Part shown: piece by piece, positions 11,784 through 49,285 of the stretch
Position numbering within the stretch: position 1 is the stretch's first letter
Layout of the letters: each line of letters begins with the position of its first letter
DNA from: an uncultured bacterium
Lineage (GTDB): Bacteria; Actinomycetota; Actinomycetes; JAVEEB01
NCBI GenBank assembly: GCA_964236265.1
Contig: CAXSDE010000004.1
Span: forward strand, 32,331-96,330
Direction of reading: 5' to 3'
DNA length: 64,000 nucleotides
Notes under the pieces: model-generated
The model's database searches: none
What the model was told of the DNA's origin: nothing
The model's input: the letters and a program-made list of their open reading frames with translations, nothing else
Position numbers and translations under genes: made by a program

Positions 11784-11840
11784 CCCGGCAGCGTACGGCC
11801 GGTCACTGCCTTCCGCCGCCGTCGTCCACAGGCGAGGAAC

Positions 11841-12308
11841 TCACGACAGGCGCTGCCCGGCGCGCAGCATGTTGATCGCCTTCGCTGCGCGCCGGTCACG
11901 CGTCGCGGCCTGCTTGGCCTCACCCACCCACACCGCGTACTCCTTGCGGTGCGTGAAGGCCAGCGCGTCGTAGCGCGCCGCGGCGTCCGGACTGGCGTCG
12001 AGCGCCCTCCGTAGTTCATCCGACACGACGATCTCGACCGGCTGGCTGTCCAGGGACAGGGTGATGTCGAGCACCGAGCCGTCCGTGATGCCCGCCTCCT
12101 CGCGGACCGCCTTGACGAAGCCGAGAACGGTGCTGCCGCCGGACACCATGAGCCTGGTGCGGAACGCATGACCGTTGACGGTGCCGACCACCGGCGCCCG
12201 CGCGGAGCCGAAGACCGCCTTGCCGTCGAACGGGCACTCGACCCAGCGGCCGCCGACGCCGTTCGCCTCGGTCAGCCGGCCCCGGAAGCGCACGGGCTCC
12301 GCGCTCAT
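11841..12308 (-). CDS. DUF1905 / YdeI-OmpD-associated family protein
   Basis: 156 aa from the internal Met (MSAEPVRFRG...). Domain order is DUF1905 then a bacteriocin-protection-like C-terminus. The upstream part of the 295-aa ORF is an Arg-rich artefact. Confidence 0.55.
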   Translation of the reverse strand: MSAEPVRFRGRLTEANGVGGRWVECPFDGKAVFGSARAPVVGTVNGHAFRTRLMVSGGSTVLGFVKAVREEAGITDGSVLDITLSLDSQPVEIVVSDELRRALDASPDAAARYDALAFTHRKEYAVWVGEAKQAATRDRRAAKAINMLRAGQRLS

Positions 12309-12829
12309 CGACCCGGTGCGGCAGCGTGGACACGACCCGCGGAGTCGCGCAGCGTCGACCGCACCTGCTCGGTGATGCGTTGTGCGTCGACGGCGAACAC
12401 GCGGCTCCGCAGCCGGACGAAGGACCAGGCGAAGCCGCCGAACGCGATCGCTGCCGGTCCCAGCACATACGCGCCCGGCGTGGGATCGCCGTTGACGATG
12501 GGGACGACGGTCATGACGGCGCAGAACGTGGCGACGACGGCGTACATCCACGGGACGACGACCTCCGCGAACGACTCCACGATCGTCGCCGTGAGTGTCA
12601 GCACGCCGCCGTCCGTCGTCAGCCGGCCCCTGAGGTGGGGGTAGGCGTGATAGCGCGACGGGAGCACGGTCCGCGCACGGACGGCTCCGTCCGCGCCCAC
12701 GCGCAGTGCCAGGTGGTGCGATGCCCACTCCCTGCGCAGCGAGTCGGCCCGCGCGGCGAGGGCCGCGAGGCCCCCGGCGCCGCTCGAGGGCCCCAGGTCC
12801 ATCGCCACGTCGCGCTGCTGCCGTCCCAT
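12305..12829 (-). CDS. hypothetical membrane protein (2 predicted C-terminal TM helices)
   Basis: Internal Met MGRQQRDV. Hydrophobic stretches WMYAVVATFCAVMTVVPIV and LGPAAIAFGGFAWSFV. The stop is coupled to the DUF1905 start (ATGA). Confidence 0.35.
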   Translation of the reverse strand: MGRQQRDVAMDLGPSSGAGGLAALAARADSLRREWASHHLALRVGADGAVRARTVLPSRYHAYPHLRGRLTTDGGVLTLTATIVESFAEVVVPWMYAVVATFCAVMTVVPIVNGDPTPGAYVLGPAAIAFGGFAWSFVRLRSRVFAVDAQRITEQVRSTLRDSAGRVHAAAPGR

Positions 12830-12917
12830 GCGGCGATTGTCGCGCCCCGGGGAGGGCACGTCGATCGCGGACCGGGAGAAGGTGGGCAGAGGTCTAGACC
12901 TGTTGTACGGTCGCGAG

Positions 12918-14627: not shown

Positions 14628-14780
14628 GCGGTGACCCACAGTGATCGTGGCCGAACCCCTGTCGACCGGCGCTCTTCACGTGTAGCGTGCCGTCAGGTCG
14701 CAACGCGGTCCCCAGCCGCCCGACCGCGTCGGCCCGTGCACTGCGGGTCGCACGACCATCGAACGACACCGGGAGCAACA

Positions 14781-14981
14781 GTGGCACAGGGCAGCGTCAA
14801 GTGGTTCAACTCCGAGAAGGGCTACGGTTTCATCGCCGTCGACCAGGGCCCGGACGTGTTCGTCCACTACAGCTCCATCGAGACCGAGGGATACAAGTCC
14901 CTCGATGAAGGCCAGCGGGTGGAGTTCGAGGTCACGCAGGGACAGAAAGGTCCGCAGGCCGACAAGGTCCGCACGATTTGA
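14781..14981 (+). CDS. cspA: cold-shock protein CspA family
   Basis: GTG start after GGGAG. The 66 aa [33 protein letters not shown]... sequence is canonical CspA. Long 5' leader. Confidence 0.9.
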
Positions 14982-15006
14982 TTCGTCGTACGAGTCGTAC
15001 GACAAG

Positions 15007-15035
15007 AGGCCGGTGACCCGCGGGGTCGCCGGCCT
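15007..15035 (+). terminator. GC-rich hairpin downstream of cspA (putative intrinsic / bidirectional terminator)
   Basis: AGGCCGGTGACCC-GCG-GGGTCGCCGGCCT forms a 12 bp stem with 1 mismatch. It lies between convergent genes. Confidence 0.4.
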
Positions 15036-15120
15036 CTGCCGTCCCGCCGGCCTCTGCCGTCCCGCCGGCCTCTGACGTCCCGCCGGCCTCTGACGTCCCG
15101 CCGGCCTCTGACGTCCCGCC
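15027..15120. repeat. tandem repeat, 5.2 x 18 bp (CGCCGGCCTCTGMCGTCC)
   Basis: Perfect head-to-tail copies with a single C/A variant, in the convergent intergenic region between cspA and the VOC gene. Confidence 0.75.
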
Positions 15121-15126
15121 TCAGGA

Positions 15127-15558
15127 TCAACTGACGCAGAACTCATTGCCCTCCGGGTCGCGCATCGTGGTGGTGACGGGCCCGCGGTCGGCCGTCGTCC
15201 AGGCGACCGTCGCGCCCAGGGCACGCAGGCGCTCGACCTCGGCAGGGGCCAGCACGGGACCCACCTGGACGTCGAGATGCACGCGGTTCTTGGTCGACTT
15301 CCGCTCCGGAACGCGTTGGAAGAACAGCCGCGGCCCCGCGCCAGCGGGGTCGGAGCAGGCAGCCACGTCGCGGAAAGCCCGCTGGCCGTCGAGCTCGATC
15401 GTCTCCTCCGCCGCGAGCAGCCCGTCGGCGACGAGCTTGTCCACGAACGGCCCGTGGTGCTCGACGTCGTAGTGCAGCGCGGCGGCCCAGAAACGGGCGA
15501 GCGCGTGCGGGTCGGCGGCATCCATGGCCACCTGCAGGCGGGGCACCATCGAGACCAT
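15127..15558 (-). CDS. VOC / glyoxalase-family protein
   Basis: The internal Met MVSMVPRLQV... has a glyoxalase-like fold signature (LHYDVEHHGPFV...RVHLDVQV). The upstream part of the 250-aa ORF is not coding-like. Confidence 0.65.
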   Translation of the reverse strand: MVSMVPRLQVAMDAADPHALARFWAAALHYDVEHHGPFVDKLVADGLLAAEETIELDGQRAFRDVAACSDPAGAGPRLFFQRVPERKSTKNRVHLDVQVGPVLAPAEVERLRALGATVAWTTADRGPVTTTMRDPEGNEFCVS

Positions 15559-15739
15559 CGAGACCTCCCGTGTCGGCGCTCGTCGCGACAAGTATCGCGA
15601 CGGGCGCCGATCCAGGACACGGGCGCCCCGTTGAGGGGCACGGGCCTCGAGGAACGACTCGCCGAACTGCTCCGCGGTCGTCAGCGGATACACCGGGTTC
15701 GCGGGCAATCGCTGGCCGCTCTCCTTGAGCTGGTAGGAC

Positions 15740-17548
15740 GTGGCTGCGTCGCTACGCGATGTCCGACGTGAGCACCCTGGGCGCGCGCGGGGAGACAAAG
15801 TTCTTGCCACCCGCACGTCGGCGGCCCGCGAAAGGGTCGAGACGGCCCAGGGCGGGGACGTTGGCCGCGTGACGATCACCTCAGGCGGCCCGCCGCTGCT
15901 CGACGCTCTGCTGCGGTTGCGCGCGGCGGTCGCCGTGACGCACCTGACCCTCGATGTCCCCGGTGCCGCTGCAGCGCGCGACGACCAGCGCCGGCTTCTC
16001 GATCAACTCGACGACTACGTCCTGCCACGCCTGCGCCGGCTGGACGCGCCGCTGCTCGCTGTCGTCGGGGGCTCGACCGGCGCGGGCAAGTCGACGCTGG
16101 TCAACTCACTCGTCGGTGAACGCGTCACCCGCTCGGGTGTGCTGCGCCCGACGACCCGGGCCCCGATGCTGATCTGCCACCCCGACGATGCGGCGTGGTT
16201 CGCCGACGAGCGGATCCTGCCCGGGATGACGCGCGCACCAGGCGGCTCCGACGCGCCGGCGACTCTCGGGCTCGTCTCCTCCGACGCCGTGCCCCGCGGC
16301 CTGGCACTGCTCGACGCCCCGGACGTCGACTCGATCGTCGTGGAAAACCGGCGGCTGGCGCGTCAGCTGCTCGACGCGGCCGACATGTGGCTGTTCGTCA
16401 CGACAGCCGCGCGCTACGCCGACGCGGTCCCGTGGGATCTCCTGCGCGAGGCCGGCGAGCGCGGGATCGCCCTCGCGATCGTCCTCGACCGCGTCCCGGC
16501 CGAGGCGCTCGGCGAGGTCGCCGCGGATCTGACCGCCAACCTCGAGGCCAACGGCCTCGGCTGGGCGCCATTGTTTTCCGTCGTCGAGACGCCCGCCGTC
16601 GACGGGCTGCTGCCGCCCGAGGCCGTCGCGCCGCTGCGCGACTGGCTGCAGGCCCTCGCCGCCGACGCCGCCTCCCGCGACGAGGTCGTGCGCCAGACCC
16701 TCGCCGGCGCGCTGCGGACCGTGGCAGAAAGGGCCCGCGCCCTGGTTGCCGCCCAGGAAGCGGAGGCCCAAGGTGCCGCCGAGTTGTCGGGCGTGGCCGG
16801 GTCGGCCTTCGCCGCGGCCTTGACCGACACCGACGACGCACTGCGCGACGGCCGCGTGCTGCGCGGCGAGGTGCTCGTGCGCTGGCAGGAGTTCGTCGGG
16901 ACCGGTGAACTGCTGCGCACGCTCGAGTCGCGTATCGGTCGGCTGCGCGACCGGATCGCGGCAGCGGTGACCGGCCGCCCGCCGGCCGGCGCCGACCTCA
17001 CCGCCGCGCTCGAGACCGGCGTGGAGGCCCTGGTCCGCGACGCCGACGCGCGCGCCGCGCAGCGCATCGCCGATGCGTGGGGGCACCGCCCGGACGGGGC
17101 GTCGCTCGTCCGCGAGCACGCCCTCGATCGCCCGTCGCCCGAGTTCGCCGGGCGCGCGAAGGACATGGTCCGCGAGTGGCAGCACGGAATCCTGGACATC
17201 GTCCGCGACACGGCTCAGGGGAAGCGGACGGTGGCGCGCATCCTCTCGTACGGCGTGAACGGAGCCGCACTCTTCGTCATGGTTGCCGTCTTCGCGCACA
17301 CCGGTGGGCTGAGCGGCGGAGAGGTCGCGGTCGCCGGCGGCGCGTCCGCCGTCGGGCAGAAGCTGCTCGAGGCGCTGCTCGGCGACCAGGCCGTGCGGGA
17401 CCTCGCGGCCCAGGCGCGCTCGGACCTCCGTCGGCGCGTCGAGGAGCTGTTCGCGACGGAGCGCGCCCGCTACGACTCGGTCCTGCCGGCGCCCGCGCCG
17501 CCGGCGCTCGCGGAGGCTGCCGCGAGCGTCGAGCGGGCGACCCGGTGA
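15740..17548 (+). CDS. dynamin-like / MMR_HSR1-type GTPase (paralog 1)
   Basis: P-loop GGSTGAGKSTLVNSL. G2/G3-like LLDAPDVDS. Long alpha-helical C-terminus. Start codon uncertain. Confidence 0.65.
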   Translation: MAASLRDVRREHPGRARGDKVLATRTSAARERVETAQGGDVGRVTITSGGPPLLDALLRLRAAVAVTHLTLDVPGAAAARDDQRRLLDQLDDYVLPRLRRLDAPLLAVVGGSTGAGKSTLVNSLVGERVTRSGVLRPTTRAPMLICHPDDAAWFADERILPGMTRAPGGSDAPATLGLVSSDAVPRGLALLDAPDVDSIVVENRRLARQLLDAADMWLFVTTAARYADAVPWDLLREAGERGIALAIVLDRVPAEALGEVAADLTANLEANGLGWAPLFSVVETPAVDGLLPPEAVAPLRDWLQALAADAASRDEVVRQTLAGALRTVAERARALVAAQEAEAQGAAELSGVAGSAFAAALTDTDDALRDGRVLRGEVLVRWQEFVGTGELLRTLESRIGRLRDRIAAAVTGRPPAGADLTAALETGVEALVRDADARAAQRIADAWGHRPDGASLVREHALDRPSPEFAGRAKDMVREWQHGILDIVRDTAQGKRTVARILSYGVNGAALFVMVAVFAHTGGLSGGEVAVAGGASAVGQKLLEALLGDQAVRDLAAQARSDLRRRVEELFATERARYDSVLPAPAPPALAEAAASVERATR

Positions 17549-19176
17549 AGGGCCGCCGCCCCGCGGCACCGGACGTCGGCGACCGGCTCACCGCCCTCGA
17601 AGCGGTGCTGTCCGACGCCGACGGACGCCTGTCGGCGGCGGACGTGGCGGATGCGCGCGCAGTGCTCTCCCGCGCCGGCGAGCGGCTGCGGATCGCGGGG
17701 CGGCACACCGTCGTGGCGCTCGCAGGAGCCACCGGCAGCGGCAAGTCCTCCCTGTTCAACGCCATCACGGGGACGCAAACCGCCCGCGTCGGGGTGACGC
17801 GACCGACCACGTCGACCCCGCACGCGGCGGTGTGGGGGGCAGACCCGGCGGCCGCCCTGCTCGAACGGCTGGGTGTCCCGGCCGGCGACATCACGGCACT
17901 GCCGCCCCGCGCCGTCGACGGCGACGGGCGTGCCGACGGGCACGGGCTCGCCGACGGGCTCGTGCTCGTCGACCTGCCCGACTTCGACTCCACCGAGCGC
18001 GGCAACCGCGCTCAGGTCGACCGGCTGCTCGATCTCGTCGACCTGTTCGTGTGGGTCGTCGACCCGCAGAAGTATGCCGACGGCGTCCTGCATGAGGACT
18101 ACCTGCGGCCGCTGTCGTCGTACGCCGAAGTCATGGTCGTCGTGTTCAACCAGATCGACCGGGTGACGGCCGCGCAGGCCGGTCAATGCCTCGCCGACCT
18201 GGGCGGTCTGCTGCGGGCCGATGGCCTGGCCGGCGTGCCGATCGTCGCCACGTCCGCACGCACCGGCGCCGGTCTGGTCGAGCTGCAGACGCTGCTGACG
18301 GGAGCCGTCGAGCGCCACGAGGCGCACGTCGCCCGCATCACGGCGGACGTCGCGCGCGTGACCGCGAGGCTCGCCGATCAGGTGGCGGGCGGCGACCCGG
18401 CGACGATCGGCCGCGGGGAGCGGGCGCAGCTCATCGCGGCGCTCGAAGTCGCCGCGGGAGCGCCGGGGTTGGCCGCGGCCGCAGGGGCGTCGTACCGGCG
18501 GGAGGCGGCGCTGCGCACCGGCTGGCCCGTGACGCGCTGGGTGGGCCGGTTGCGCCGCGACCCGCTGCGGGCGCTCGGCCGTGGTCGCGCCCCCGCGGTC
18601 GCGCCGACGGCAGCGGCCGGCGGTGCGGCGACGGTGGGACAGGCGCAGCTCGCCAACGCGGTGCGCGCCGTCGTCACCGGCGTGAGCGACAGCGTGCCGG
18701 CCGCGTGGCAGCCGTCCGTGCGCCGGGCGGTGGGCAGTGATGACCGGCGCCTGGGAATGGCCGTGCAGGAGGCGGTGGCACCGACGGCGATCCCGGTCGT
18801 GCGCCCCCGGTCGTGGTGGCGGGTGCTCGGCGCCGTGCAGCTCGTGCTGGTGCTCGCGCTGCTCGCCGGCGTCGTCTGGCTGGGCGTGCTCGCCGCCCTC
18901 CAGTATTTCCGGCTGCCGGATCCGCCCATGTATGAATGGCACCGCGTTCCGTTGCCCACCTGGCTCGTCGCCGGGGGTGCGCTCGCCGGCCTACTGGTCG
19001 CGCTCGTCGGTCGCCTGTTCGCGCGGGTCGGCGGCCGCCGCCGCAGTCGGCAGGTGCGTGCGTTGCTGCACGAACGGCTCGCCGCGGTCGCCCGCACGAC
19101 GGTGATCGACCCGCTGGTGGCGGAGCTGGCGACGCTCGAGCGCGTCCGGGCGGGGTTGCGCCGCGCGGCCGGCTGA
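17545..19176 (+). CDS. dynamin-like / MMR_HSR1-type GTPase (paralog 2, with C-terminal TM helices)
   Basis: GTG start overlaps the upstream stop (GTGA). P-loop AGATGSGKSSLFNAITG and VLVDLPDFDS. Two hydrophobic helices near the C-terminus (WWRVLGAVQLVLVLALLAGVVWLGVL, WLVAGGALAGLLVALV). Confidence 0.7.
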   Translation: MKGRRPAAPDVGDRLTALEAVLSDADGRLSAADVADARAVLSRAGERLRIAGRHTVVALAGATGSGKSSLFNAITGTQTARVGVTRPTTSTPHAAVWGADPAAALLERLGVPAGDITALPPRAVDGDGRADGHGLADGLVLVDLPDFDSTERGNRAQVDRLLDLVDLFVWVVDPQKYADGVLHEDYLRPLSSYAEVMVVVFNQIDRVTAAQAGQCLADLGGLLRADGLAGVPIVATSARTGAGLVELQTLLTGAVERHEAHVARITADVARVTARLADQVAGGDPATIGRGERAQLIAALEVAAGAPGLAAAAGASYRREAALRTGWPVTRWVGRLRRDPLRALGRGRAPAVAPTAAAGGAATVGQAQLANAVRAVVTGVSDSVPAAWQPSVRRAVGSDDRRLGMAVQEAVAPTAIPVVRPRSWWRVLGAVQLVLVLALLAGVVWLGVLAALQYFRLPDPPMYEWHRVPLPTWLVAGGALAGLLVALVGRLFARVGGRRRSRQVRALLHERLAAVARTTVIDPLVAELATLERVRAGLRRAAG

Positions 19177-19185
19177 CGCCGCGGA

Positions 19186-19951
19186 TCAGAAGCCGGGAAA
19201 GACGGCCTTCACGTCATCGAACGACACACCGGCCGCGTCGAGGACGGCGCCATCGGCGCCGTCGAGCCGTCCGTAGACCAGGCGGATGAGCTGTTCGGCC
19301 GGCAGCGTCAGCGTGCCGTCCGCCTGCTCTGGGGCCCCGGCGGTCAGCGTCGAGGACTCGCCGCCCCGCAGCGCGAACTCGCGTCCCGGGCCCGTCGTCG
19401 TGACCGCCAGCGTGAAGGTCTTGTCGCTCGGCTTGGCTGCCCAGCGCGCGGTGCGCGGTGCGCGTGTCGACGAGCAGCGCCGACGCGTCTGCGCTGAGGA
19501 CCGCGCCCGGCTCACGCATCACAGCGATGTCCCACGTGTGCACGGCGTGCTCGGCAAGGCGGATGCCGACAACCCCCGCGAGGTCGAACTCCATCCCGAG
19601 CCACGACAGGTGCGCCGACTCGCGCTCCGCCGGCGGGATGTCCAGCAGGCGCTGCACGGCGGCGGCGTCGGTCGAAATGGCGTCGGCGGCCTTCTCCTCG
19701 GGCGTCTTGGCGTTCCAGCGGTCCCAGATCGGCTGCATCTGCTGGCCGCCGGGCGCCTCGCCGCCGGTGAGGGCCGCCGTCGTCATGAGGGCGCTGTGTT
19801 CGGCGCCGCTGCCGAGGTGGGACAGGACGTCCGCGATGGTCCATTCGCGTACGACGGGCTGCGCACGTCGTCGGCGCCCAGATCCGCCGCCAGCTTCGCG
19901 AGGCGCTGGTGCGAGTTGCGCAGGGCGTCGGTCCAGGGCTGGGCGTCACTC
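19186..19951 (-). pseudogene. mycothiol-dependent maleylpyruvate-isomerase-like (DinB_2 / TIGR03083 family) gene with two frameshifts
   Basis: Three successive frames carry the N-terminal (MSDAQPWTDALRNSHQRLAKLAADL), middle (EWTIADVLSHLGSGAEH... inferred, ...MTTAALTGGEAPGG) and C-terminal (KTFTLAVTTTGPGREFAL...LIRLVYGRLD) parts of one family member. Confidence 0.55.
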
Positions 19952-20004
19952 ATGTGCGGGTCCTCCGGGTGCAGGGGGCGAAAACGTCGTACAGGAAAGG
20001 ATTG

Positions 20005-20330
20005 TCAGACGGCGCAGGCGGCGTCGATGCACGACGCGTCGTCGCCCCCGCCGGCCATGACGATGGGGTGGGCTGACGCCCAGGCTTGCCGCAACATGCC
20101 GAGTGGCACGTCCGCGGGCTGCGCCGGAGAGCCGTAGCGCCGGTCGGCGACGAAGAACGGCACGCCGCTGATGCCGAGCGCCGGCGCCTCGGCGATGCCC
20201 GCGGCGAGGTGGAGAACGCGGTGCACGTCGAGCGTGTTGCCCGAGAGTCGGACCAGATCTCGACCTGCACGGGGCGCCTCCACGAAGTTGAGCGTTAACG
20301 TCACCCAACGCGCGGCGATCGCCGATCCTT
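20005..20330 (-). pseudogene. DsbA/FrnE-like thioredoxin-fold gene fragment (C-terminal part only)
   Basis: ISGVPFFVADRRYGSPAQPADVPLGMLRQA resembles the FrnE/DsbA C-terminus. Sequence upstream in the same frame is non-coding-like. Confidence 0.3.
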
Positions 20331-20453
20331 CCGCACTCCGTCGTTGGAGGAAACCTCCAGAACCGCCGGGTGAACGCGGTGCCCTACCGGCATCGGCAGC
20401 GCCTGCCGGCGCCGACACGATGCTCCTCGGCAACGACATCCACTGGAGGAACC

Positions 20454-21044
20454 ATGACGACATTTCTGCCGCCGCTCGCTGGGCGCCGCCGGGTGCTGGC
20501 GGACGCGTGGGCGCCCCGGGTGTCCCCGGCTGCGCGTTCCGCGGCACTCGTGGTGGCCGGGGCCGCTCTGGTCGGCCTGTGCGCCCAGCTGTCGCTGCGT
20601 GTGCCGGGCACGCCCGTGCCGGTGACCGGCCAGACGTTCGCGGTGCTGCTCGTCGGGGCCGCGCTCGGCTGGCGGGACGCCGGCCTGTCGATGGCGCTCT
20701 ATGCGGTTGCCGGGAGTCTCGGGGTGCCCTGGTTCGCGCACGGCGGGTCCGGGTGGGCGGTGACCTTCGGCTACGTGCTCGGGTTCGTCGTGGCCGCCGC
20801 GGTGGTGGGGCGCCTCGCCGAGCGGGGCGGCGACCGGTCCCCGCTGCGGACGGCCACCACGATGGTGCTCGGGACGGCGCTGATCTATGCCATCGGCGTG
20901 CCGTGGCTCGCGCATGCCGTGCACGTGTCCCTGCCCCGCGCGTGGGCCCTCGGTGCGCGACCCTTCCTCGTCGGCGACGCGCTCAAGGTGCTGCTGGCGG
21001 CCGGGCTGTTGCCCGGAGCGTGGGCGGCCCTGCATCGCCGCTGA
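20454..21044 (+). CDS. bioY: biotin transporter BioY
   Basis: ATG after GGAGG. The 196 aa sequence carries BioY hallmarks (VPGTPVPVTGQTFAVLLVGAALG...GVPWFAHGGSG...GYVLGF). Confidence 0.85.
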   Translation: MTTFLPPLAGRRRVLADAWAPRVSPAARSAALVVAGAALVGLCAQLSLRVPGTPVPVTGQTFAVLLVGAALGWRDAGLSMALYAVAGSLGVPWFAHGGSGWAVTFGYVLGFVVAAAVVGRLAERGGDRSPLRTATTMVLGTALIYAIGVPWLAHAVHVSLPRAWALGARPFLVGDALKVLLAAGLLPGAWAALHRR

Positions 21045-41706: not shown

Positions 41707-44700
41707 ATGTCGGACACCACCTCAGGTCGGGGACCCACCACTGTTTCGCGCGGGATGCGCGCGTTGCTCAGCGCCGTGCTCGTCGCCGCCTCGATGCTGT
41801 TCGGCGCCGTCACTGCCACCAGCGCGAACGCGACAGGACCGACGCTGACGGTGACGCCGAGCTCCACCGTGCGCGTCCCGCCGAGTGGGTCGACGGGCCT
41901 GTCGGGTCTCACGGTGTCGGGGGATGCGATCGACGACCTCACGGTCACCGTTGCCACGGACTTCGCCACGTTGAGCGTCGGCACGACCACCAACGTCGTC
42001 CTCGGCTACAACAACAGCTGGACCGGCACGCAGTCGGTCACCTTCTCGGGTCTGCAGTCCGACATCGACACGGCCCTGGCTTCCGTCTCGCTCGTGACGA
42101 CCGGGACGACCGGCACGGCGCACGTGTCGCTGACCGCGTTCGTGTCGCAGGCGGGGCTGTATTACCTGGCCAGCAACCAGCACTTCTACCAGTACGTCGC
42201 GAGCCCCTCGGTGACGTGGACGACCAGCGACATCAACGCCCGCGCCTCCAGTTTCCAAGGCCAACAAGGCTATCTCGCCACGATCCCCAACGACACGGTC
42301 AACGCATTCATCTCCACGAAGATCGCCAACGCCACCAACATCTGGTTCGGCGCGCGAGCATATGAAGCCGCCGCCACGGACGGTTCCCAGTCGTATGCGG
42401 TCGTCGGCGGAACGACCTACGCGCGGGTGTGGCGCTGGGCGGTCGGCGCCAACGAGAGTCCCATCCAGGGCACGGTCATCAGCGAGTGCACCAACGCGGC
42501 CGGCGCCTGCACGTTCCAGAACGCCGGGAGTTTCTACAGCAGCTGGGCCGGCGGCGAACCCAACAACTTCAACGTGAACGGCGCCGTCGCGTACGCGGGC
42601 GAGTACGTCGCCGTCACCAACTGGAGCGGCACTCTCGGCAAGTGGAACGATTTGCCGCCGGGCAACACGGGCACCAGCGGCTACGTCGTCGAGTACGGCG
42701 GCCGGACCAACGCCGACGCCTCCTTGGGCACGGGCTTCGCCGGTGTCGTGACGGCCACGGGCACCACGACGGTCGCCAACGCACCGGCCGTCCCCGCCGC
42801 CCCCGTTCTCAACGGAGTGCGCGGCGACACCGTGATCGACCTGTCGTGGACCCCGCCGAACGACGGTGGCTCCTCGATCACGGGTTATGAGAGCTCCGTC
42901 AACGGCGGCGCGTGGGCCACCCAGCCGACGACGTCGAGCAACGCGGTCGTCAACGGCAACGTCGTCACCACGGTCGCCGCGACGCTCACCGGTCTCACGA
43001 ACGGCACGTCGTACACCGTGCAGGTCCGTGCGTTGAGCAGCGCCGGCACGGGCGCCGCGAGCAACACCGTGACGCTGACGCCCGCGGCGGTGCCCGGCGC
43101 CCCGACCATCGGCACGGCGACCGGTGGCAACGCGCAGGCGACCGTCGCCTTCACCCCGCCGGGCGCCACCGGCGGCTCGGCCATCACGTCCTACACCGTG
43201 ACCTCCGGACCCGGCACGCCGGTGACGGCGACGTGCGCGGCGAGCCCCTGCACCGTCACGGGTTTGTCGAACGGCGCCTCCTACGTGTTCACCGTGCACG
43301 CCACCAACGCGGCCGGCTCGGGAGCCGAATCGGGTGCGTCCACCTCCGTCACGCCGATGACCGTGCCGGGTGCGCCGACGGTTCTCGCCGCGACGCGCGG
43401 CAACGGTTTCGCGAGCGTCGCGTTCGCGGCGCCCGCGAGCAACGGTGGCTCGCCCATCACCGGCTACACCATGACGACCTCACCGGGCGGCGCGACGGTG
43501 GCCTGCTCCGCCAGCCCGTGCGTGAAGAGCTCGCTCACCAATGGGACGGCCTACACGTTCACCATCCACGCGACCAACGTCGTGGGCAACAGCGTCGAGT
43601 CGGCGGCGTCCAACAGCGTCACTCCGGCGACCACCCCGGGAGTCCCGACCGGCGTCTCGGCGGTGCGTGGCAATGCGTCCGCGGTCGTGACCTGGACGGC
43701 GCCCGCGTCGACGGGCGGCTCCGCGATCACCAGCTACGTCGTGTCCGTCCACCCCGGCAGCGGCACGCAGTCGTGCGGCAGCCCGTGCACGGTCAGCGGC
43801 CTGACGAACGGCACGTCCTACACGTTCTCCGTGCACGCCGTGAACGCCGTTGGCGCCGGCACGGAGTCGGCCAACTCCGCTGCCGTCACCCCGGCCGGGC
43901 CCCCGAGCGCGCCGAGCGGACTCGTCGTCACCCGCGGCGACCAGACGGCCGTGGTCTCGTTCACGGCTCCCGGCGCGAACGGGTCAGCGATCACGGGCTA
44001 CGAGGTGTCCATCAACGGCGGGACCACGTGGCAGTCGCTGGCCACCGCCGGTTCGCCCACGGTCACGGGAACCGTGACCGGCTTGACGAACGGCACCAGT
44101 TACCCGGTGACCGTGCGGGCGGTGAACGCCATCGGCGCGAGCCCGCAGGCGACGCCGCAGGCCGTCACTCCCGCGACGGTCCCCGGCGCGCCGGGCACCC
44201 CGTCGGTGCTGCGCGGCGCGTCGCAGGTCAGCGTGAGCTGGACCGCGCCGGCGAGCAACGGCGGCGACCCGCTCACCGGCTACACGGTGACCTCGAGCCC
44301 GGGTGGCAACACCTGCACGGCGGCGGCCGCCGCGACGTCGTGCACCGTGACGGGGCTGACCAACGGCACCAGCTACACCTTCACGGTCCACGCGAGCAAC
44401 ACCGTCGGCAACGGCAGCGAGTCACCGGCGTCGGCCGCGGCTGTTCCGATGACGACGCCCGGCGCGCCGACGGGCGTGTCCGGTGTGCCGGGTGACCAGT
44501 CGGTCTCCGTCAGCTTCAGTGCGCCGGCCTCGAACGGCGGCAGCGCCATCATCTCGTTCACGGTGACCGCGTCCCCGGGGGGCGCCACCGCGACCTGCAG
44601 TGCGTCGCCGTGCGTCGTGCCCGGCCTGACCAACGGCACCGCCTACACGTTCACCGTGCACGCGGCCAACAGCATCGGCAACGGGGCGGAGTCCGCACCG

Positions 44701-47283
44701 TCCCCGTCCATCACCCCGATCACGGTCGCGGGGCCGCCGACCGCGGCAGCCGCCAGTCGCGGCGACGGGCAAGCGGTCGTGACGTTCGCGCCACCCGCGG
44801 CCAACGGCGGCGGCGCCATCACCGGTTACCGCGTCACGACGCATCCCGGCGGCGCCGTCCTGCTGTGCGCGGCGAGCCCGTGCACCGTCGGCGGACTGAC
44901 GAACGGCACCGCCTACACCTTCACCATCGCCGCCATCAACGCCGCGGGCCCGGGCCCCGATTCGGCACCGACGGCTCCAGTGACGCCGGCCACGCTGCCG
45001 GACGCGCCGACGGCCGTCACCGCGACACGCGGCGACTCGTCCGCGGCGGTGACGTTCAACGCGCCGCCGTCGGACGGCGGTTCGGCGGTCACCGGCTACA
45101 CCGTCACCGCGTCACCGTCGGGGATGACGGGCTCGTGTGCGGTCAGCCCGTGCACCGTCAGCGGCCTCACGAACGGCACCTCCTACACGTTCACCGTGCA
45201 CGCCACGAACGCGATCGGCGACAGTGTGGAGTCCGTGCCGTCCACCGCTGTCACACCGGCCACCGTGCCGGGCGCCCCGACAGGGGTGGGCGCGACCGCG
45301 GGCGACTCGTCCGCCGTCGTGACGTTCACGGCGCCCGTTGCCACCGGCGGATCCGCCGTCACCGGATACCGCGTCACGGCGCAGCCGGGTGGGTCGGTCA
45401 CGCTCTGCGCCGCCAGCCCGTGCGCGGTCAGCGGTCTCACGAACGGCACCGCATACACCTTCGTGGTCGCCGCCGGCAACGCCGTCGGGACGGGACCCGA
45501 CTCCGCCGCCTCCGCCGCCGTCGCCCCCGCCGGTGCACCGGACGCCCCGACCGCCGTCGGCGCCGTCGCTGGTGACCAGTCCGCGTCGGTCAGCTTCAGT
45601 GCGCCGGCCTTCGACGGCGGCTCGCCGATCACCGGCTACACCGTCAGCGCCAGCCCCGGCTCCGCGACGGTCTCGTGCGCAGCGTCCCCGTGTGTCGTGT
45701 CCGGGTTGACCAATGGGTCCTCGTACAGCTTCACCGTGCACGCCACGAACGCCATCGGCAGCGGTCCGGAGTCCGCGGCCTCCACCCCGGTCGTGCCCGG
45801 GCCCGTGCCGGCCGCACCGACAGGAGTCACTGCCGCCGCCGGGAACGCCGGAGCCGTCGTCACATGGACGGCGCCGAGTGACGGTGGGACGCCGATCACC
45901 GGTTACTCCGTGACCGTCTCGCCGGGCGGCGGGGTCACCACGTGCACGAGTCCCTGCACGATTGCGGGGCTGACGAACGGCGTCTCGTACACGTTCACCG
46001 TCACCGCGACGAACAGCGTCGGCACCGGGGCCGCGTCCGCGCCGTCGGCCGCCGTGACCCCCGCCGCCGTGCCCGACGCTCCGACGGCCGTCGGTGCGAC
46101 GCCCGGCGACGGCCTCGTGACCGTCACCTTCACCGCGCCGGGATCCGACGGCGGGACGCCCATCACCGGTTACCGCGTCACGGTGACGCCCGGCGGTGCC
46201 GCGACGCTGTGTACGGCGAGTCCGTGCACCGTTTCCGGGTTGACCAACGGCACGCCGTACACGGTCACCGTGGCCGCGATCAATGCGGTCGGCACCGGCC
46301 CGGACTCCGCGTCGTCGGCCGCCGTGACACCGGTCGCACCCGCGCCTTCGGTCACGCCGACTCCGACGGTGTCGAGCACTCCGACGGTGTCGGCTACTCC
46401 GACGGTGTCGGCTACTCCGACGGTGTCCGCTACCCCTAGCGCATCGACTACCCCGACCGGTTCTGTCTTCCCGACCGTGTCCGCTACCCCGACCGGGTCC
46501 GCTACCCCGACCGGGTCCGCTACCCCAACCGGGTCCGCTACCCCAACCGGGTCCGCTACCCCGGCGCCCACCCCCTCGAGCCCCCCGACGTCGGTCAGCC
46601 CGGGCAGCAAGCCGCCGGTGCCGCAGGGCATCCGCGCCGTTCCCGGCAACGCCCGCGTGACGATCAGCTGGTCGACGTTCGCCGGCGCCGGCGTCTCGGC
46701 GGTGACGACCTACACGGTGACCGCGCAGCCGGGTGGCGGCACCTGCTCGACGACCGGGTCCTCGTGTGTCGTGGAGCCGCTGACGAATGGCAAGACCTAC
46801 CGCTTCTCGGTCGTCGCGGCGAACCTCGTCGGTGCAAGCGCGCCGTCCGCCGTGGTGAGCGCGATGCCCGCCGGGCCCCCGTCGGCGCCGGTGGCGCCGG
46901 CCGTCGACGGGTCGGGCACGTCGGTGACCGTCACGTGGCAGGTGCCGGCCCACCTGTTCGGGTCGACCATCACCGGCTACACGGTCACCGCGGCACCGGG
47001 CGGCGCCACGTGCACACCGACGCCGGAAACGGCGACATGGTGCGTGGTGTCCGGGCTCACCGCGGGGAGGGCCTACACCTTCCGCGTCGTCGCGCACAGC
47101 ACGGCCGGCGACTCGGACGTGAGCCTCAGCTCCCGTCCGGTGCAGATCGTCGCCGCCGGGCCGTCGCTGTCCTACACCGGCGCCCCGATCGAGCAGATCC
47201 TCGTTCTCGGCCTCGTTCTGGTCGGTCTCGGCACCGCCGCGACCACGGTCGGTCGCCGCCGCCGTCGCCCCGACGCCGCATGA
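41707..47283 (+). CDS. giant cell-surface protein: signal peptide, C-type lectin domain, about 18 fibronectin type III repeats, Pro/Thr linker, sortase-like anchor
   Basis: Signal MRALLSAVLVAASMLFGAVTATSANA. CTLD motifs (WFGA, GEPNN, WND). About 16 consecutive 88-aa FN3 units with the consensus GGS.ITGY.VT.SPGG...C.ASPC.V.GLTNGT.YTFTV, plus two more after the linker. C-terminal LSYTG followed by a hydrophobic stretch and RRRRR. Confidence 0.85.
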   Translation: MSDTTSGRGPTTVSRGMRALLSAVLVAASMLFGAVTATSANATGPTLTVTPSSTVRVPPSGSTGLSGLTVSGDAIDDLTVTVATDFATLSVGTTTNVVLGYNNSWTGTQSVTFSGLQSDIDTALASVSLVTTGTTGTAHVSLTAFVSQAGLYYLASNQHFYQYVASPSVTWTTSDINARASSFQGQQGYLATIPNDTVNAFISTKIANATNIWFGARAYEAAATDGSQSYAVVGGTTYARVWRWAVGANESPIQGTVISECTNAAGACTFQNAGSFYSSWAGGEPNNFNVNGAVAYAGEYVAVTNWSGTLGKWNDLPPGNTGTSGYVVEYGGRTNADASLGTGFAGVVTATGTTTVANAPAVPAAPVLNGVRGDTVIDLSWTPPNDGGSSITGYESSVNGGAWATQPTTSSNAVVNGNVVTTVAATLTGLTNGTSYTVQVRALSSAGTGAASNTVTLTPAAVPGAPTIGTATGGNAQATVAFTPPGATGGSAITSYTVTSGPGTPVTATCAASPCTVTGLSNGASYVFTVHATNAAGSGAESGASTSVTPMTVPGAPTVLAATRGNGFASVAFAAPASNGGSPITGYTMTTSPGGATVACSASPCVKSSLTNGTAYTFTIHATNVVGNSVESAASNSVTPATTPGVPTGVSAVRGNASAVVTWTAPASTGGSAITSYVVSVHPGSGTQSCGSPCTVSGLTNGTSYTFSVHAVNAVGAGTESANSAAVTPAGPPSAPSGLVVTRGDQTAVVSFTAPGANGSAITGYEVSINGGTTWQSLATAGSPTVTGTVTGLTNGTSYPVTVRAVNAIGASPQATPQAVTPATVPGAPGTPSVLRGASQVSVSWTAPASNGGDPLTGYTVTSSPGGNTCTAAAAATSCTVTGLTNGTSYTFTVHASNTVGNGSESPASAAAVPMTTPGAPTGVSGVPGDQSVSVSFSAPASNGGSAIISFTVTASPGGATATCSASPCVVPGLTNGTAYTFTVHAANSIGNGAESAPSPSITPITVAGPPTAAAASRGDGQAVVTFAPPAANGGGAITGYRVTTHPGGAVLLCAASPCTVGGLTNGTAYTFTIAAINAAGPGPDSAPTAPVTPATLPDAPTAVTATRGDSSAAVTFNAPPSDGGSAVTGYTVTASPSGMTGSCAVSPCTVSGLTNGTSYTFTVHATNAIGDSVESVPSTAVTPATVPGAPTGVGATAGDSSAVVTFTAPVATGGSAVTGYRVTAQPGGSVTLCAASPCAVSGLTNGTAYTFVVAAGNAVGTGPDSAASAAVAPAGAPDAPTAVGAVAGDQSASVSFSAPAFDGGSPITGYTVSASPGSATVSCAASPCVVSGLTNGSSYSFTVHATNAIGSGPESAASTPVVPGPVPAAPTGVTAAAGNAGAVVTWTAPSDGGTPITGYSVTVSPGGGVTTCTSPCTIAGLTNGVSYTFTVTATNSVGTGAASAPSAAVTPAAVPDAPTAVGATPGDGLVTVTFTAPGSDGGTPITGYRVTVTPGGAATLCTASPCTVSGLTNGTPYTVTVAAINAVGTGPDSASSAAVTPVAPAPSVTPTPTVSSTPTVSATPTVSATPTVSATPSASTTPTGSVFPTVSATPTGSATPTGSATPTGSATPTGSATPAPTPSSPPTSVSPGSKPPVPQGIRAVPGNARVTISWSTFAGAGVSAVTTYTVTAQPGGGTCSTTGSSCVVEPLTNGKTYRFSVVAANLVGASAPSAVVSAMPAGPPSAPVAPAVDGSGTSVTVTWQVPAHLFGSTITGYTVTAAPGGATCTPTPETATWCVVSGLTAGRAYTFRVVAHSTAGDSDVSLSSRPVQIVAAGPSLSYTGAPIEQILVLGLVLVGLGTAATTVGRRRRRPDAA
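46360..46562. repeat. in-frame 18 bp tandem repeats (PTVSAT x3, PTGSAT x4) in the Pro/Thr linker of the giant protein
   Basis: ACTCCGACGGTGTCGGCT and ACCCCGACCGGGTCCGCT units. Confidence 0.7.
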
Positions 47284-47336: not shown

Positions 47337-47687
47337 CTACACAGGGAACAGGACGTGCGCCAGTGCGCTGAGCGCCTCGGGGATGGTCCGGTAGTAGACG
47401 TTCATTCCGACGCGCTCTTTGGTCACAAGGCCGGCTTCGAAGAGTTGCTTGAGGTGGTGGCTGGCGGTGCCCTCGCTGAGACCAACCGCGGGCGCCAGGT
47501 CACAGGTGCAGCAGCCGTCGACCGGGGCGTCGGCGAGCATCGACAGCAGCTGCACCCGGACCGGGTCGGCGACAGCCTTGAGTCGCTTGGCGACAGCGAG
47601 CGCGTCCTTGTAGGACATCACACCCGCACTGAGCGGCGCACAACACAGCGGCGCCGTCGCATCGATGACGGGAAGCTGTTTGGGCAT
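47337..47687 (-). CDS. arsR: ArsR/SmtB-family metalloregulator
   Basis: HTH VRVQLLSMLADAPVDGCCTCDL with a Cys triad in the DNA-binding helix. Divergent from arsM. Confidence 0.85.
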   Translation of the reverse strand: MPKQLPVIDATAPLCCAPLSAGVMSYKDALAVAKRLKAVADPVRVQLLSMLADAPVDGCCTCDLAPAVGLSEGTASHHLKQLFEAGLVTKERVGMNVYYRTIPEALSALAHVLFPV

Positions 47688-47707
47688 CGCGCAAGCATCC
47701 TTGATAA

Positions 47708-47747
47708 TTTGACAAACGTCAAAGATGCCATTTCGATGTGAATCGAA
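47708..47747. promoter_or_regulatory. two perfect palindromes in the arsR-arsM divergent promoter (putative ArsR operators)
   Basis: TTTGAC-AAAC-GTCAAA (47708-47723) and TTCGAT-GTGA-ATCGAA (47732-47747) in an unusually AT-rich spacer just upstream of the arsM RBS AGAGGAG. Confidence 0.5.
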
Positions 47748-47759
47748 GATCTAGAGGAG

Positions 47760-48554
47760 ATGCGGACCGTGGCAAACGAATCAGCAGTGGTGCGCGAGCA
47801 GGTGCGGGAGCGGTACGCGAGTGCCGCGCTCGCCGTGATCGGCGGCGGGCAGGCGTCAAGCGGCCCTGACTCTGTGTCCGGCTGCTGCGCCCCTGCAGCA
47901 GATGCTTTTCAGAACATGGGCGTCGACTTCGGAGCTGAGCTCTACACGGCCGCCGACGGTGCCGAACTCCCTGCCGCGGCCGTCGCCGCGAGCCTCGGTT
48001 GCGGCAACCCGCTCGCCGTGGCTGACCTCCGCGAAGGCGAGACAGTCCTTGACCTCGGATCCGGTGGCGGCATCGACGTCATCCTGTCCGCGCGCCGCGT
48101 CGGCGCGACCGGGAAGGCGTACGGGGTCGACATGACCGACGAGATGCTCACCCTCGCCCGCGCGAACGCGCAGACGGCCGGCGTGACCAATGTCGAGTTC
48201 CTCAAGGGAACGATCGAGACTCTGCCCCTGGGTGACGCGAGCATCGACGTAGTCATCAGCAACTGCGTCATCAACCTTTCGACCGACAAGCCGGCCGTGT
48301 TCGCGGAGATGAGCCGCGTCCTTCGCGCCGGCGGACGCGTCGGCGTCAGCGATGTCGTTGCCGAGGACCGCCTGCCCGTCGCCGAACGCGCGGAGCGCGG
48401 CGAACACGCTGGATGCATCGCCGGAGCGCTGTCCGTCGCCGAATACACCGATGGTCTGACCTCAGCCGGTTTCGTCGAGGTGACGGTGACGTTCACCCAC
48501 GAGGTCGCGGACGGGCTGCACGGCGCCATCGTGCGCGCCACCAAGCAGGCATGA
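47760..48554 (+). CDS. arsM: arsenite S-adenosylmethionine methyltransferase
   Basis: SAM motif [12 protein letters not shown]. Conserved Cys (GCC near the N-terminus, NCVINL, GC). 264 aa. Confidence 0.85.
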
Positions 48555-49285
48555 CGCGCAACCGGTCCGCGTTCGCCGAGTTCCTCGGCACCGCCCTGCT
48601 GATGGCGACCGTGATCGGGTCCGGCATCGCCGCGCAGCGCCTGTCGCCGAACGACGTCGGCCTCGAGCTGCTCGAGAACGCTCTCGTCACGGGGGCCGCG
48701 CTCGTCGCCTTGATTCTCGCCCTGGGCCCGGTGTCGGCTGCGTTCAACCCGGTCGTGACGCTCACGGAGCGGGTGATGGGTGCGATCAGCACGTCCGACG
48801 CGGTCGTGTTCGTCGCGGCACAGCTCGCCGGTGGGTTCGTCGGTGCCGTCGTTGCCAACCTCATGTTCGACGAGCCCGCCGTCGCCATCTCCACGCACGT
48901 GCGCTCCACGGGAGCGTTGTGGCTCAGCGAGGTCGTCGCCACCTTCGGTCTCGTCCTCGTCATCTTCGGAGTCGTCCGCTCGGGCCGGAAGTCGACGGTC
49001 GCTTTCGCGGTCGGCGGCTACATCACTGCGGCGTACTGGTTCACCAGCTCGACAAGTTTCGCCAACCCGGCGGCCGCGTTCGCGCGGATGTTCTCCAACA
49101 CGTTCGCGGGGATCGCCCCGTCGTCGGTGCCGGCGTTCATCGCCGCGCAGCTTGTCGGAGGCGCCCTCGGGCTGGCCGCCGTGCGTGTGCTCTACCCATC
49201 GGCGGCGAGCTTGGCCGGCGACGTTGCCCATCTCGACTCGTTGCCGCGCGACGCGGCTCCCAACGCCACGGAGGCAACCCGATGA
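48551..49285 (+). CDS. MIP-family aquaglyceroporin (arsenite channel AqpS-like)
   Basis: NPV (first) and NPA (second) half-helix motifs. 6 TM. Start overlaps the arsM stop (ATGA). Confidence 0.8.

Follow-up and report, generated by a model that had tools for sequence, protein, structure and literature searches.

A C-type lectin head, an FN3 stalk and a sortase-like tail: a candidate fibrillar adhesin of an actinobacterium

The window, by which we mean the whole 64-kb stretch of DNA analysed, carries on its forward strand a complete gene of 1,858 codons and a stop codon (41707–47283), to which all the features described below belong. It starts with ATG, and a Shine-Dalgarno-like motif, GGAAGG, lies 8–13 nt 5' of this codon. 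The initial annotation had read the ORF as a single large surface protein. That this is a real gene is borne out by the ORF list, by a GC3 of 0.91 that is uniformly high along its length and by the Pfam fn3 match of the whole protein (E = 4.4e-184). A syntenic ortholog is present in L001, a Frankiaceae MAG. Scans for sigma-70 promoters and intrinsic terminators found nothing flanking the gene, the consensus patterns fitting actinobacteria poorly.

From the N- to the C-terminus, the protein comprises a Sec signal peptide, a beta-sandwich pre-domain, a C-type lectin domain (CTLD), 13 FN3 domains, a Pro/Thr-rich linker, two further FN3 domains and a tail made of LSYTG, a transmembrane (TM) helix and RRRRR. 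The overall composition is of low complexity, rich in Thr, Ser, Ala, Gly, Val, and Pro. The architecture first proposed for this protein was mostly right, but it gave a wrong number of FN3 units, took them for near-identical and overlooked the pre-domain. As read from the sequence, the Sec-type signal peptide (aa 1–42; 41707–41832) has a basic n-region, the hydrophobic core ALLSAVLVAASMLFGAV and a cleavage site between ANA and TG. The mature N-terminus is conserved, as homologs all begin with a T-L-T-V-T-P block after AxA. The pre-domain, a conserved region of about 110 aa (aa ~43–152; 41833–42162) forming a beta-sandwich with one helix, separates the signal peptide from the CTLD. Most relatives also have it ahead of their lectin domain.

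The CTLD is of the long-loop type and spans aa ~153–332 (42163–42702). The landmarks WFGA (aa 213–216), GEPNN (aa 283–287), and WND (aa 313–315) are all found where the initial annotation had placed them. This annotation had staked the lectin reading on the Pfam profile Lectin_C (PF00059), and on that profile alone the reading falls: there was no match for the whole protein or for isolated N-terminal pieces, even at E ≤ 10. Similarly, no NCBIfam lectin model was matched by the protein, and a phmmer search of the N-terminal 362 aa against the PDB returned nothing. These direct searches failed for lack of sensitivity and not for lack of homology. A profile built from 17 sequences of the family matched 105 solved CTLD sequences in the PDB (best E = 2.4e-10), including aggrecan, CD23, and MBP-C at about 1e-10 and the type II antifreeze proteins 2afp and 2zib at about 1e-7. 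In this comparison, WxxGEPNN...GE...WND aligns residue for residue to the sugar site of MBP-C. Seven of the 17 aligned relatives pass PF00059 in a scan where the window sequence itself has no match; P0041 and P0103 pass it strongly, and P0013, which also carries PF00059, is linked to the window protein by phmmer at E = 2e-15. The profile is failed by the actinobacterial FN3-stalk branch, that is, by the window protein, L002, L003, P0020, P0061, and P0081. The lectin reading therefore holds despite the Pfam failure, because the family profile, the linked PF00059-positive relatives and the alignment of the calcium-site residues all sustain it. Judged by profile and transitive links, the N-terminal head is homologous to bona fide CTLDs. 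An AlphaFold (AF2) model of the head (pLDDT 78, pTM 0.74) predicts a CTLD double-loop fold with a long loop region and shows two helices along with the strands expected for it. Among the Foldseek matches listed for this model, the best are lithostathine, mincle, and snake lectins, with target TM scores of 0.7–0.8 (up to 0.81) and a probability of 1.00; the non-CTLD rows are a few B4GALNT1 structures, which correspond to the pre-domain.

All five ligands of Ca2+ site 2 are in place on alignment. The EPN triplet E284-P285-N286 (42556–42564), the mannose/GlcNAc-type determinant, aligns to the EPN of MBP-C; E299 (42601–42603), the third ligand, is invariant in the family alignments A1 and A2; and the WND motif W313-N314-D315 (42643–42651) supplies the remaining two, N314 and D315. 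We extracted the corresponding positions from 181 complete CTLDs of the family. The three residues of EPN are conserved in 173, 181, and 170 domains, respectively, the E299 position is Glu in 167, and the three residues of WND are found in 181, 169, and 181. Conservation thus ranges from 92% to 100% at these seven positions, while the neighboring loops vary widely in length. EPN, which had been described as rare in bacteria, is the norm within this bacterial family, where it outnumbers QPD by 169 to 14. The auxiliary Ca2+ site 1 is probably missing, as Y300 occupies the position equivalent to D194 of MBP-A.

Both canonical CTLD disulfides are absent, the corresponding positions being held by V301 and P318; these positions are Cys in just 13 and 10 of the 181 family domains. 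The only cysteines of the lectin domain form a C261-x6-C268 pair located in an insert (42487–42510), and their equivalents are Cys in 84 and 82 family domains, respectively. The domain also shows three loop expansions, of 26 versus 9, 35 versus about 26–31, and 12 versus 4–5 residues. In the last of these, the loop between EPN and the Glu ligand, 4–5 residues is the mode of the family, and the 7-residue insertion might alter the shape of the site or block it.

If it works like mannose-binding protein, the CTLD would bind, through a bound calcium ion, sugars whose neighboring 3- and 4-hydroxyls are both equatorial (Man, GlcNAc, Glc, and Fuc). CTLD folds are also used for other ligands, as in snaclecs, type II antifreeze proteins and the CLec proteins of the DGR and FGE type, and many CTLDs bind no sugar. 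The domain might accordingly recognize a protein, a mineral surface or ice, with EPN/WND holding a structural calcium only; the two antifreeze proteins among the PDB matches and the large loop insertions beside the site point in this direction. We regard this possibility as quite improbable, because a five-ligand calcium site of the sugar type has been kept throughout the family amid changing loops, and because, the B4GALNT1 rows aside, the Foldseek matches listed belong to the CTLD superfamily and are mostly sugar-binding lectins. It is further disfavored by the lack of any FGE-sulfatase match, of a reverse transcriptase motif, and of a template/variable repeat pair at the lectin region. A variable lectin targeted by a DGR was ruled out, as there is no direct repeat at 42163–42702 and no YxDD in an open frame.

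The head is followed by 13 tandem, diverged FN3 domains with a period of about 270 bp (aa 362–1543; 42790–46335). Next comes a Pro/Thr/Ser-rich linker of 88 aa (aa 1544–1631; 46336–46599). As the initial annotation had noticed, it is built from an 18-bp tandem repeat (46360–46563; 11.3 copies with 83% matches according to Tandem Repeats Finder, and recovered by a second repeat search as family D6), which encodes TPTVSA and TPTGSA hexapeptides. Two distal FN3 domains, also noticed at the outset, lie C-terminal to the linker (aa 1632–1723 and 1724–1815; 46600–47151) and are 31–51% identical to the main array. Pfam delimits 15 fn3 stretches, which the unit partition resolves into 13 contiguous units of 88–100 aa each plus the distal pair, instead of the 16 near-identical 88-aa units plus two that had been announced. 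Pairwise identity between the 13 units is 36–71% at the protein level (mean 54%) and 47–71% for codon-aligned DNA (mean 61%), and exact DNA matches between FN3 units reach 23 bp at most. Tandem Repeats Finder did not detect the 270-bp period, and a repeat search recovered an FN3 spacing of 264–282 bp with 60–83% identity. A Cys pair had been attributed to every unit in the form C.ASPC; it is present in 11 of the 13 array units and in both distal ones, but is missing from units 1 and 5, and only seven units match the motif exactly.

Given this divergence of the FN3 units, the risk of collapse or recombination is low, and the idea that the gene is prone to expansion, contraction and assembly collapse applies only to the slippage-prone 204-bp repeat of the linker. 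An assembly artefact affecting the repeat number, or even the entire long ORF, could be suspected from the close database homologs, which nearly all end at contig ends within the FN3 array, and from the homologs in L008 and L009, which are split into several ORFs. Such an artefact is nevertheless very hard to credit here. With at most 71% DNA identity and exact matches of 23 bp or less, reads of at least 100 bp place uniquely; each FN3 unit is distinct, in frame and regularly spaced, GC3 is high throughout, and plausible variation is confined to the array of 18-mers. The 15 FN3 domains together with the linker would form a stalk projecting a two-domain head, made of the pre-domain and the CTLD. 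An FN3 domain is about 3.5 nm long, and from this value we estimate the length of the stalk at roughly 50–80 nm.

The tail predicted by the initial annotation was recovered at aa 1821–1854. It consists of LSYTG, a motif resembling the LAxTG and LPxTG sorting motifs (aa 1821–1825; 47167–47181), a hydrophobic helix of 24 residues (aa 1826–1849) and RRRRR (aa 1850–1854; helix and arginines, 47182–47268). It is the sole occurrence of an L[PAS]xTG motif followed by a hydrophobic segment within the window. This putative tripartite signal would at minimum leave the protein anchored in the membrane. Beyond this, the T-G bond of LSYTG may be cut by a housekeeping sortase of the class E type, which would join the protein to peptidoglycan. 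We know of no documented class E substrate of the LSxTG type. In soil actinobacteria, class E sortases recognize LAXTG through a hydrogen bond to the backbone amide of the residue replacing proline (PMC5148588). As serine has the same backbone amide, we infer that this acceptance extends to LSYTG.

The protein might instead remain tethered by its TM helix or be shed, LSYTG being a chance match. In favor of such a tail, all sorting-signal HMMs stay below their curated cut-offs (LAXTG_small_WW, 22 bits versus 65; Microco_LAVTG, 10 versus 27), the window contains no sortase gene and, over its 64 kb, no TLxTC sortase motif in any genuine reading frame, and several relatives (P0025, P0063, and P0090) end in a TM helix and RRRR without LxxTG. 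However, motif, spacing, helix, and basic tail fit the canonical tripartite signal, the best sub-threshold match is to the LAXTG model (E = 8e-5), and in at least 20 relatives the corresponding site is occupied by LAxTG, LPxTG or LSSTG (LAFTG, LASTG, LAATG, LPTTG, and LSSTG are found). We therefore consider a tail escaping sortase rather unlikely. Among full-length relatives, L002 ends in LPFTG, a TM helix and RRR, and L003 in a peptidoglycan-binding OmpA domain (PF00691, 29.2 bits versus a cut-off of 27.2). Judging from these sequences, the same head and stalk are carried on different anchors.

The family to which the lectin head belongs is large, with at least 1,038 clusters at 50% identity, and its members are found in many phyla: Actinomycetota, Bacteroidota, Planctomycetota, Proteobacteria, Cyanobacteria, Saccharibacteria, and one methanogenic archaeon. 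Their anchors are of the sortase, OmpA, PEP-CTERM, T9SS-like or TM type. Part of the family already bears NCBI names such as "lectin-like protein". An exact-sequence search of the collection gave no match for the window protein or for two of its neighbors. The name given to the closest homolog, P0001, "trimeric autotransporter adhesin", was rejected, as no domain evidence supports it. In the literature, we found no experimental study of any family member and no characterized bacterial EPN-type CTLD or sortase-anchored C-type lectin; the expression "bacterial C-type lectin" refers there to LecB or to host receptors.

Synteny with the window was observed for L001 only. No conserved operon partner is present in the window, and the neighbors differ in L002, L003, L008, and L009. 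Gene context, which is not conserved, offers no hint of the ligand, and the window gene is an ordinary, stand-alone surface-protein gene without an associated system. One context nonetheless suggests a different role for the head, which could bind the cell's own exopolysaccharide or a glycopolymer of the wall, keeping it attached to the cell or joining adjacent hyphae, on the model of CdrA and Psl in Pseudomonas. On the 3.16-Mb contig L008, the homolog is immediately followed downstream by an exopolysaccharide cluster encoding a UDP-glucose dehydrogenase, a GT2 chitin-synthase-like transferase, a polysaccharide deacetylase, and a Pel9A-like beta-helix protein. Moreover, EPN sites bind GlcNAc- and Glc-type sugars, and a GH20 hexosaminidase is encoded in the window, 27 kb from the gene. 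Of the five contexts examined, however, a single one showed this association; the neighbors are unrelated in the window, L001, L002, L003, and L009, and exopolysaccharide genes are absent from the vicinity of the window gene. We consider such a matrix-tethering role unlikely.

Several known systems share features with this protein. Among them are the carbohydrate recognition domains of animal collectins of the MBP type (PF00059, EPN subtype), with which the lectin domain has in common the predicted long-loop fold, the succession WIGx, WxxGEPNN, GE, and WND, with WxW between the first two, and the five Ca2+-site-2 ligands aligned to MBP-C. It differs from them by the loss of the canonical disulfides, the new Cys pair in an insert, the three loop expansions, the probable absence of Ca2+ site 1, the obligatory N-terminal beta-sandwich pre-domain, its setting on a bacterial, presumably wall-anchored stalk and the failure of the Pfam model. 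With the relatives recognized by Pfam, the window protein shares a homologous CTLD with EPN/E/WND and, in many cases, the pre-domain; the actinobacterial FN3-stalk branch is set apart by its failure with Pfam and by different anchors and stalk types. DGR variable proteins and FGE-sulfatase CLec proteins share a distant bacterial C-type lectin fold, but they have no EPN/WND calcium site, and the reverse transcriptase and template repeat on which they depend were not found in the window. Intimin and invasin are bacterial surface adhesins in which, as in the candidate adhesin described here, a C-type-lectin-like fold tips an Ig-like stalk. They are anchored in the outer membrane at their N-terminus and bind proteins (Tir and integrins). 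Their CTLD-like domains are compact and have neither a long loop nor a Ca2+/sugar site (PMC6468738).

As described in the survey by Monzon and Bateman, fibrillar adhesins of Actinobacteria and Firmicutes as a standard start with an adhesive domain, continue with stalk repeats, and end in a sortase motif (PMC8286594). The same order is found here in one polypeptide, with a head at aa 43–332, 15 FN3 domains, the linker, and the putative C-terminal signal. The likeness to the Gram-positive fibrillar adhesins treated in these authors' surveys (PMC8286594; PMC9210967) extends to the presumed binding head, the tandem stalk, the putative sortase-type signal and the T/S/A/G/V/P-rich composition, whereas the stalk is made of FN3 domains instead of SpaA, Cna-B or Big. 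The main text of both surveys does not mention a canonical CTLD as an adhesive domain and draws the C-type-lectin comparison for Intimin_C only.

Taken together, these data lead us to favor, with some confidence, a lectin adhesin of the fibrillar type. The high-GC actinobacterium that encodes it is related to Frankiaceae; the protein would be exported by the Sec pathway, retained at the cell by its C-terminus and equipped with a calcium-dependent sugar-binding head. The initial proposal of a glycan-binding surface adhesin, with a CTLD bearing an EPN/WND site, an FN3 stalk and a sortase-like signal, is probably correct. CTLD homology, calcium-site residues, stalk, and tail all speak for it, but the FN3 count, the near-identity of the units and, within this family, the rarity of EPN that accompanied it do not stand. 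The target could be the glycans of other organisms (fungal, plant or bacterial) or the bacterium's own exopolysaccharide.

The window protein is an uncharacterized member of a large, database-annotated bacterial lectin family and not a new kind of system; as a candidate fibrillar lectin adhesin, it is well formed but ordinary. According to the survey, more than 90% of the predicted Gram-positive fibrillar adhesins whose stalk domain is known lack a recognizable binding domain (PMC9210967), and by Pfam alone the window protein would likewise score as "stalk only". It provides a concrete case in which databases show FN3 domains only and in which profile and structure analysis bring to light the complete calcium site of a C-type lectin. 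A profile derived from the actinobacterial branch would annotate such cryptic lectin heads, and the recombinant head (aa 43–335) would be tractable for identifying the sugars recognized by Frankiaceae-related soil actinobacteria. More tentatively, the pairing of the pre-domain with a cysteine-poor EPN CTLD may be the signature of C-type lectins that truly depend on calcium and form a large prokaryotic family, ancient in origin and unexplored in function. If so, the FN3-stalk branch of actinobacteria, invisible to Pfam and NCBIfam, would represent a hidden class of heads among "stalk-only" fibrillar adhesins, and the EPN/WND chemistry usually associated with animal innate immunity would have a wide reservoir in bacteria instead of reflecting sporadic transfer from animals.

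The lectin gene lies at 41707..47283 on the plus strand, as first annotated, and encodes, from an ATG start, a protein of 1,858 aa. GC at third codon positions reaches 0.91, against ~70% GC for the window as a whole; the ORF is clearly coding, and a GGAAGG motif precedes the start by 8–13 nt. The exact protein sequence is absent from a collection of 15 billion proteins. The motifs read from the sequence are all in place: WFGA (aa 213–216), GEPNN (283–287), and WND (313–315) in the N-terminal domain, LSYTG (1821–1825) and RRRRR (1850–1854) in the tail. Between them, the PT linker built from 18-bp repeats (aa 1544–1631; DNA repeat at 46360–46563, 11.3 copies, 83% matches) and the two FN3 units distal to it were also recovered.

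The FN3 stalk is shorter and more divergent than the initial annotation had proposed. Instead of about 18 near-identical units, we found 15 (Pfam fn3, E=4.4e-184, 15 separate stretches), 13 of them contiguous (aa 362–1543) and two beyond the linker. Identity among the 13 is 36–71% for the protein (mean 54%) and 47–71% for codon-aligned DNA (mean 61%). No pair of units shares an exact DNA match longer than 23 bp, and Tandem Repeats Finder did not detect a 270-bp period in the array. Of the 13 array units, 11 carry the Cys pair expected in every unit, as do both distal ones; units 1 and 5, which are longer than the others, have no such pair, and the exact C.ASPC motif occurs in only seven units. 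Unlike the window gene, the L002 homolog of Acidimicrobiaceae has a truly repetitive FN3 array (270-bp period, 7.9 copies, 84% matches), located at 11243–13362 of MAG chromosome OY970234, in which several units have nearly the same protein sequence. This array is a recent expansion, indicating that repeat number in the family changes by unit duplication.

Curated models failed to recognize the lectin domain. Lectin_C, the proposed check, gave no match, not even at E≤10, whether to the whole protein or to N-terminal pieces taken alone; no NCBIfam lectin model was matched, and a phmmer search of the PDB returned nothing. We treat these misses as a failure of sensitivity, because the lectin identity is borne out by relatives carrying PF00059, by a family profile, by the predicted fold, and by conservation of the Ca2+ ligands. 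A word-indexed search with aa 43–361 gathered 19 relatives, among which the distant P0013–P0017 (E=2e-15 to 9e-8 against the window protein) have precomputed PF00059 matches. When 17 aligned lectin regions were scanned singly, seven passed Lectin_C (best E=2.4e-11); the window region and its close relatives did not reach the threshold. As a profile, this alignment (A2) matches 105 distinct solved CTLD sequences, headed by aggrecan, CD23, and mannose-binding protein C (MBP-C) at ~1e-10, and the family block WxxGEPNN...GE...WND aligns residue for residue with WNEGEPNNVGSGENC...KWNDVPC of MBP-C. The AlphaFold2 model of the head, comprising a pre-domain that the initial annotation had overlooked (aa ~43–152) and the CTLD (aa ~153–332), has a mean pLDDT of 78 and a pTM of 0.74. 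Foldseek matched it to CTLDs with probability 1.00 and target TM up to 0.81, the best matches listed being lithostathine, RegIII-alpha, rattlesnake and Bothrops lectins, mincle, and the mannose receptor. The only non-CTLD entries among the matches listed, a few B4GALNT1 rows from rank 22 on (~106 aligned columns), correspond in the predicted model to the pre-domain. Homology of the N-terminal domain to CTLDs is thus virtually certain.

All five residues that ligate Ca2+ at site 2 of MBP are present on the alignment (E284, N286, E299, N314, and D315). They are invariant across the 17 sequences and 92–100% conserved in 181 complete CTLDs from 165 family proteins, in which the loops beside the site range from 3 to 22 residues. 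Such constrained ligands amid variable loops point, at the sequence level, to a metal/sugar site under constraint rather than to a relic, and a functional calcium/sugar site is a likely prediction. The Pfam miss is accounted for by three loop expansions and the lack of canonical cysteines. Compared with the shortest relatives, the WIG-to-WxW loop has 26 residues versus 9, the WxW-to-W(EPN) loop 35 versus about 26–31, and the EPN-to-E loop 12 versus 4–5. The canonical disulfide positions are occupied by V301 and P318; Cys is found there in only 13/181 and 10/181 family domains. A C261-x6-C268 pair, common to ~45% of the family, sits in a CTLD insert. Pfam likewise gives only FN3-type or other Ig-like matches for the actinobacterial L002, L003, P0020, P0061, and P0081.

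The family is large. An exhaustive phmmer search of the head against 1.84 billion cluster representatives yielded 1,038 matches at E≤1e-3, of which 303 reach E≤1e-10 and 73 reach E≤1e-30. With a cut-off of E≤1e-5, the A2 profile retrieved 1,957 proteins; many of these are PF00059-positive, and many are ~200 aa long with a PEP-CTERM tail. By genome locus or source name, relatives occur in Frankiaceae, Acidimicrobiaceae, Friedmanniella, Mycolicibacterium, Syntrophaceae, Smithella, Rhodocyclaceae, and Methanomethylovorans. The EPN triplet, thought rare in bacteria, outnumbers QPD by 169 to 14 in the 165 family proteins and is therefore the rule for CTLDs of this family. Arrays of 5–12 tandem CTLDs were seen in P0041, P0101, P0118, P0155, and P0156 (in P0041, seven stretches above the Pfam threshold, E=8e-90, and 12 by the family HMM), and several tandem-CTLD relatives have the galactose-type QPD instead of EPN. 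The closest homolog, P0001, is named "trimeric autotransporter adhesin, partial" at NCBI, a name lacking domain support in an actinobacterial FN3/CTLD protein and probably a mis-annotation.

The sortase-like anchor held as a pattern: LSYTG, APIEQILVLGLVLVGLGTAATTVG, and RRRRR-PDAA form a textbook tripartite signal, the only one within the window. No curated model was passed, the best being of LAXTG type (E=8e-5, 22 bits, cut-off 65). The 1,343-aa L002 homolog ends in LPFTG, a TM segment, and RRR, and other relatives carry LAFTG, LASTG, LAATG, LAPTG, LPTTG, or LSSTG (P0081). An OmpA-type peptidoglycan-binding domain forms the C-terminus of L003 (PF00691, 29.2 bits, cut-off 27.2) and of ~18 others; some relatives end in a plain TM plus RRRR, and some in tails resembling, by eye, Bacteroidota T9SS sorting domains. 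That one head and stalk should occur with interchangeable anchors of the wall or surface is, from sequence comparison, a strong argument for surface display, which we consider very likely. Class E sortases of soil actinobacteria recognize LAXTG by hydrogen bonding with the main-chain amide of the residue standing in for proline (PMC5148588); by analogy, the Ser of LSYTG would present the same amide. No sortase gene lies within the 64-kb window, so we only infer sortase processing, and attachment by a sortase specifically is reasonably probable.

The lectin gene stands alone in its neighborhood. Upstream are a citrate synthase gene (minus strand) and an MFS transporter gene; downstream are genes for an ArsM-like SAM methyltransferase, an MIP/aquaglyceroporin channel, a beta-eliminating lyase, and a two-component system. 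The first two, directly downstream (47760–49285, plus strand) and preceded by a sigma-70-like promoter match (47681–47708), are probably an arsenic-related pair. No DGR features were found in the window. The closest homolog contig, L001 (Frankiaceae MAG JAVEEB010000437; head protein 88% identical), shows synteny, at 76–78% nucleotide identity, that covers the citrate synthase and MFS genes and the beginning of the lectin gene, indicating that the gene is vertically held in that lineage. This contig ends inside the first FN3 unit, an indication that such genes fragment in short-read assemblies. The neighborhoods of L002, L003, L008, and L009 are unrelated to that of the window gene. In L008 (ERZ25039594 contig_1275, 3.16 Mb; 10001–20834), three consecutive ORFs make up the homolog (head; fn3+CshA_repeat; CshA_repeat+fn3+OmpA), and the split probably reflects frameshifts from long-read assembly. 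The next genes encode a UDP-glucose dehydrogenase, a GT2 chitin-synthase-like transferase, a polysaccharide deacetylase, and a Pel9A-like beta-helix protein, an exopolysaccharide locus that is the one suggestive context among homologs.

Elsewhere in the window, a type I restriction-modification system occupies a low-GC island (4547–11783; GC 0.64–0.66 versus ~0.71 in the rest). The island comprises HsdR (4547–6958), a 207-aa ORF (7000–7623), a 789-aa HsdM with an N-terminally fused AbiEii nucleotidyltransferase toxin domain (7620–9989), HsdS (9986–11125), and a RadC-like JAB gene (11109–11783, minus strand). The AbiEii–HsdM fusion looks like a defense-island feature. A SAM riboswitch (RF00162, 74.5 bits; 3109–3239, plus strand) lies immediately 5' of the ORF at 3250–4509. 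Two overlapping plus-strand ORFs (15740–17548 and 17077–19176), both with dynamin-family GTPase domains, form a bacterial dynamin-like pair. A GH20 beta-N-acetylhexosaminidase (12828–14627, plus strand; Glyco_hydro_20, E=1e-88), a GlcNAc-processing enzyme, shares the window with the putative GlcNAc/Man-type lectin, but the two are 27 kb apart and no sign of a link between them was seen.

The family and this kind of protein, a bacterial CTLD protein and fibrillar adhesin, are already in public databases and partly named. Our literature search turned up neither an experimental study of a family member nor a report of a sortase-anchored bacterial lectin of EPN type. What is new is limited to the full-length window member, an actinobacterial FN3-stalk branch invisible to Pfam and NCBIfam, and a previously undescribed conserved pre-domain. 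The protein has the layout of the fibrillar adhesins known from Actinobacteria and Firmicutes (PMC8286594), a class in which most predicted members with a known stalk domain have no recognizable binding domain (PMC9210967). Taken as a whole, a Sec-exported, C-terminally anchored fibrillar adhesin with an FN3/PT stalk and a predicted Ca2+-dependent lectin head is on balance the probable identity of the protein. It would be exported by Sec and held at its C-terminus, the stalk keeping away from the wall a head predicted to be a Ca2+-dependent lectin of Man/GlcNAc/Glc/Fuc type, whose ligands may be foreign glycans or the cell's own exopolysaccharide.
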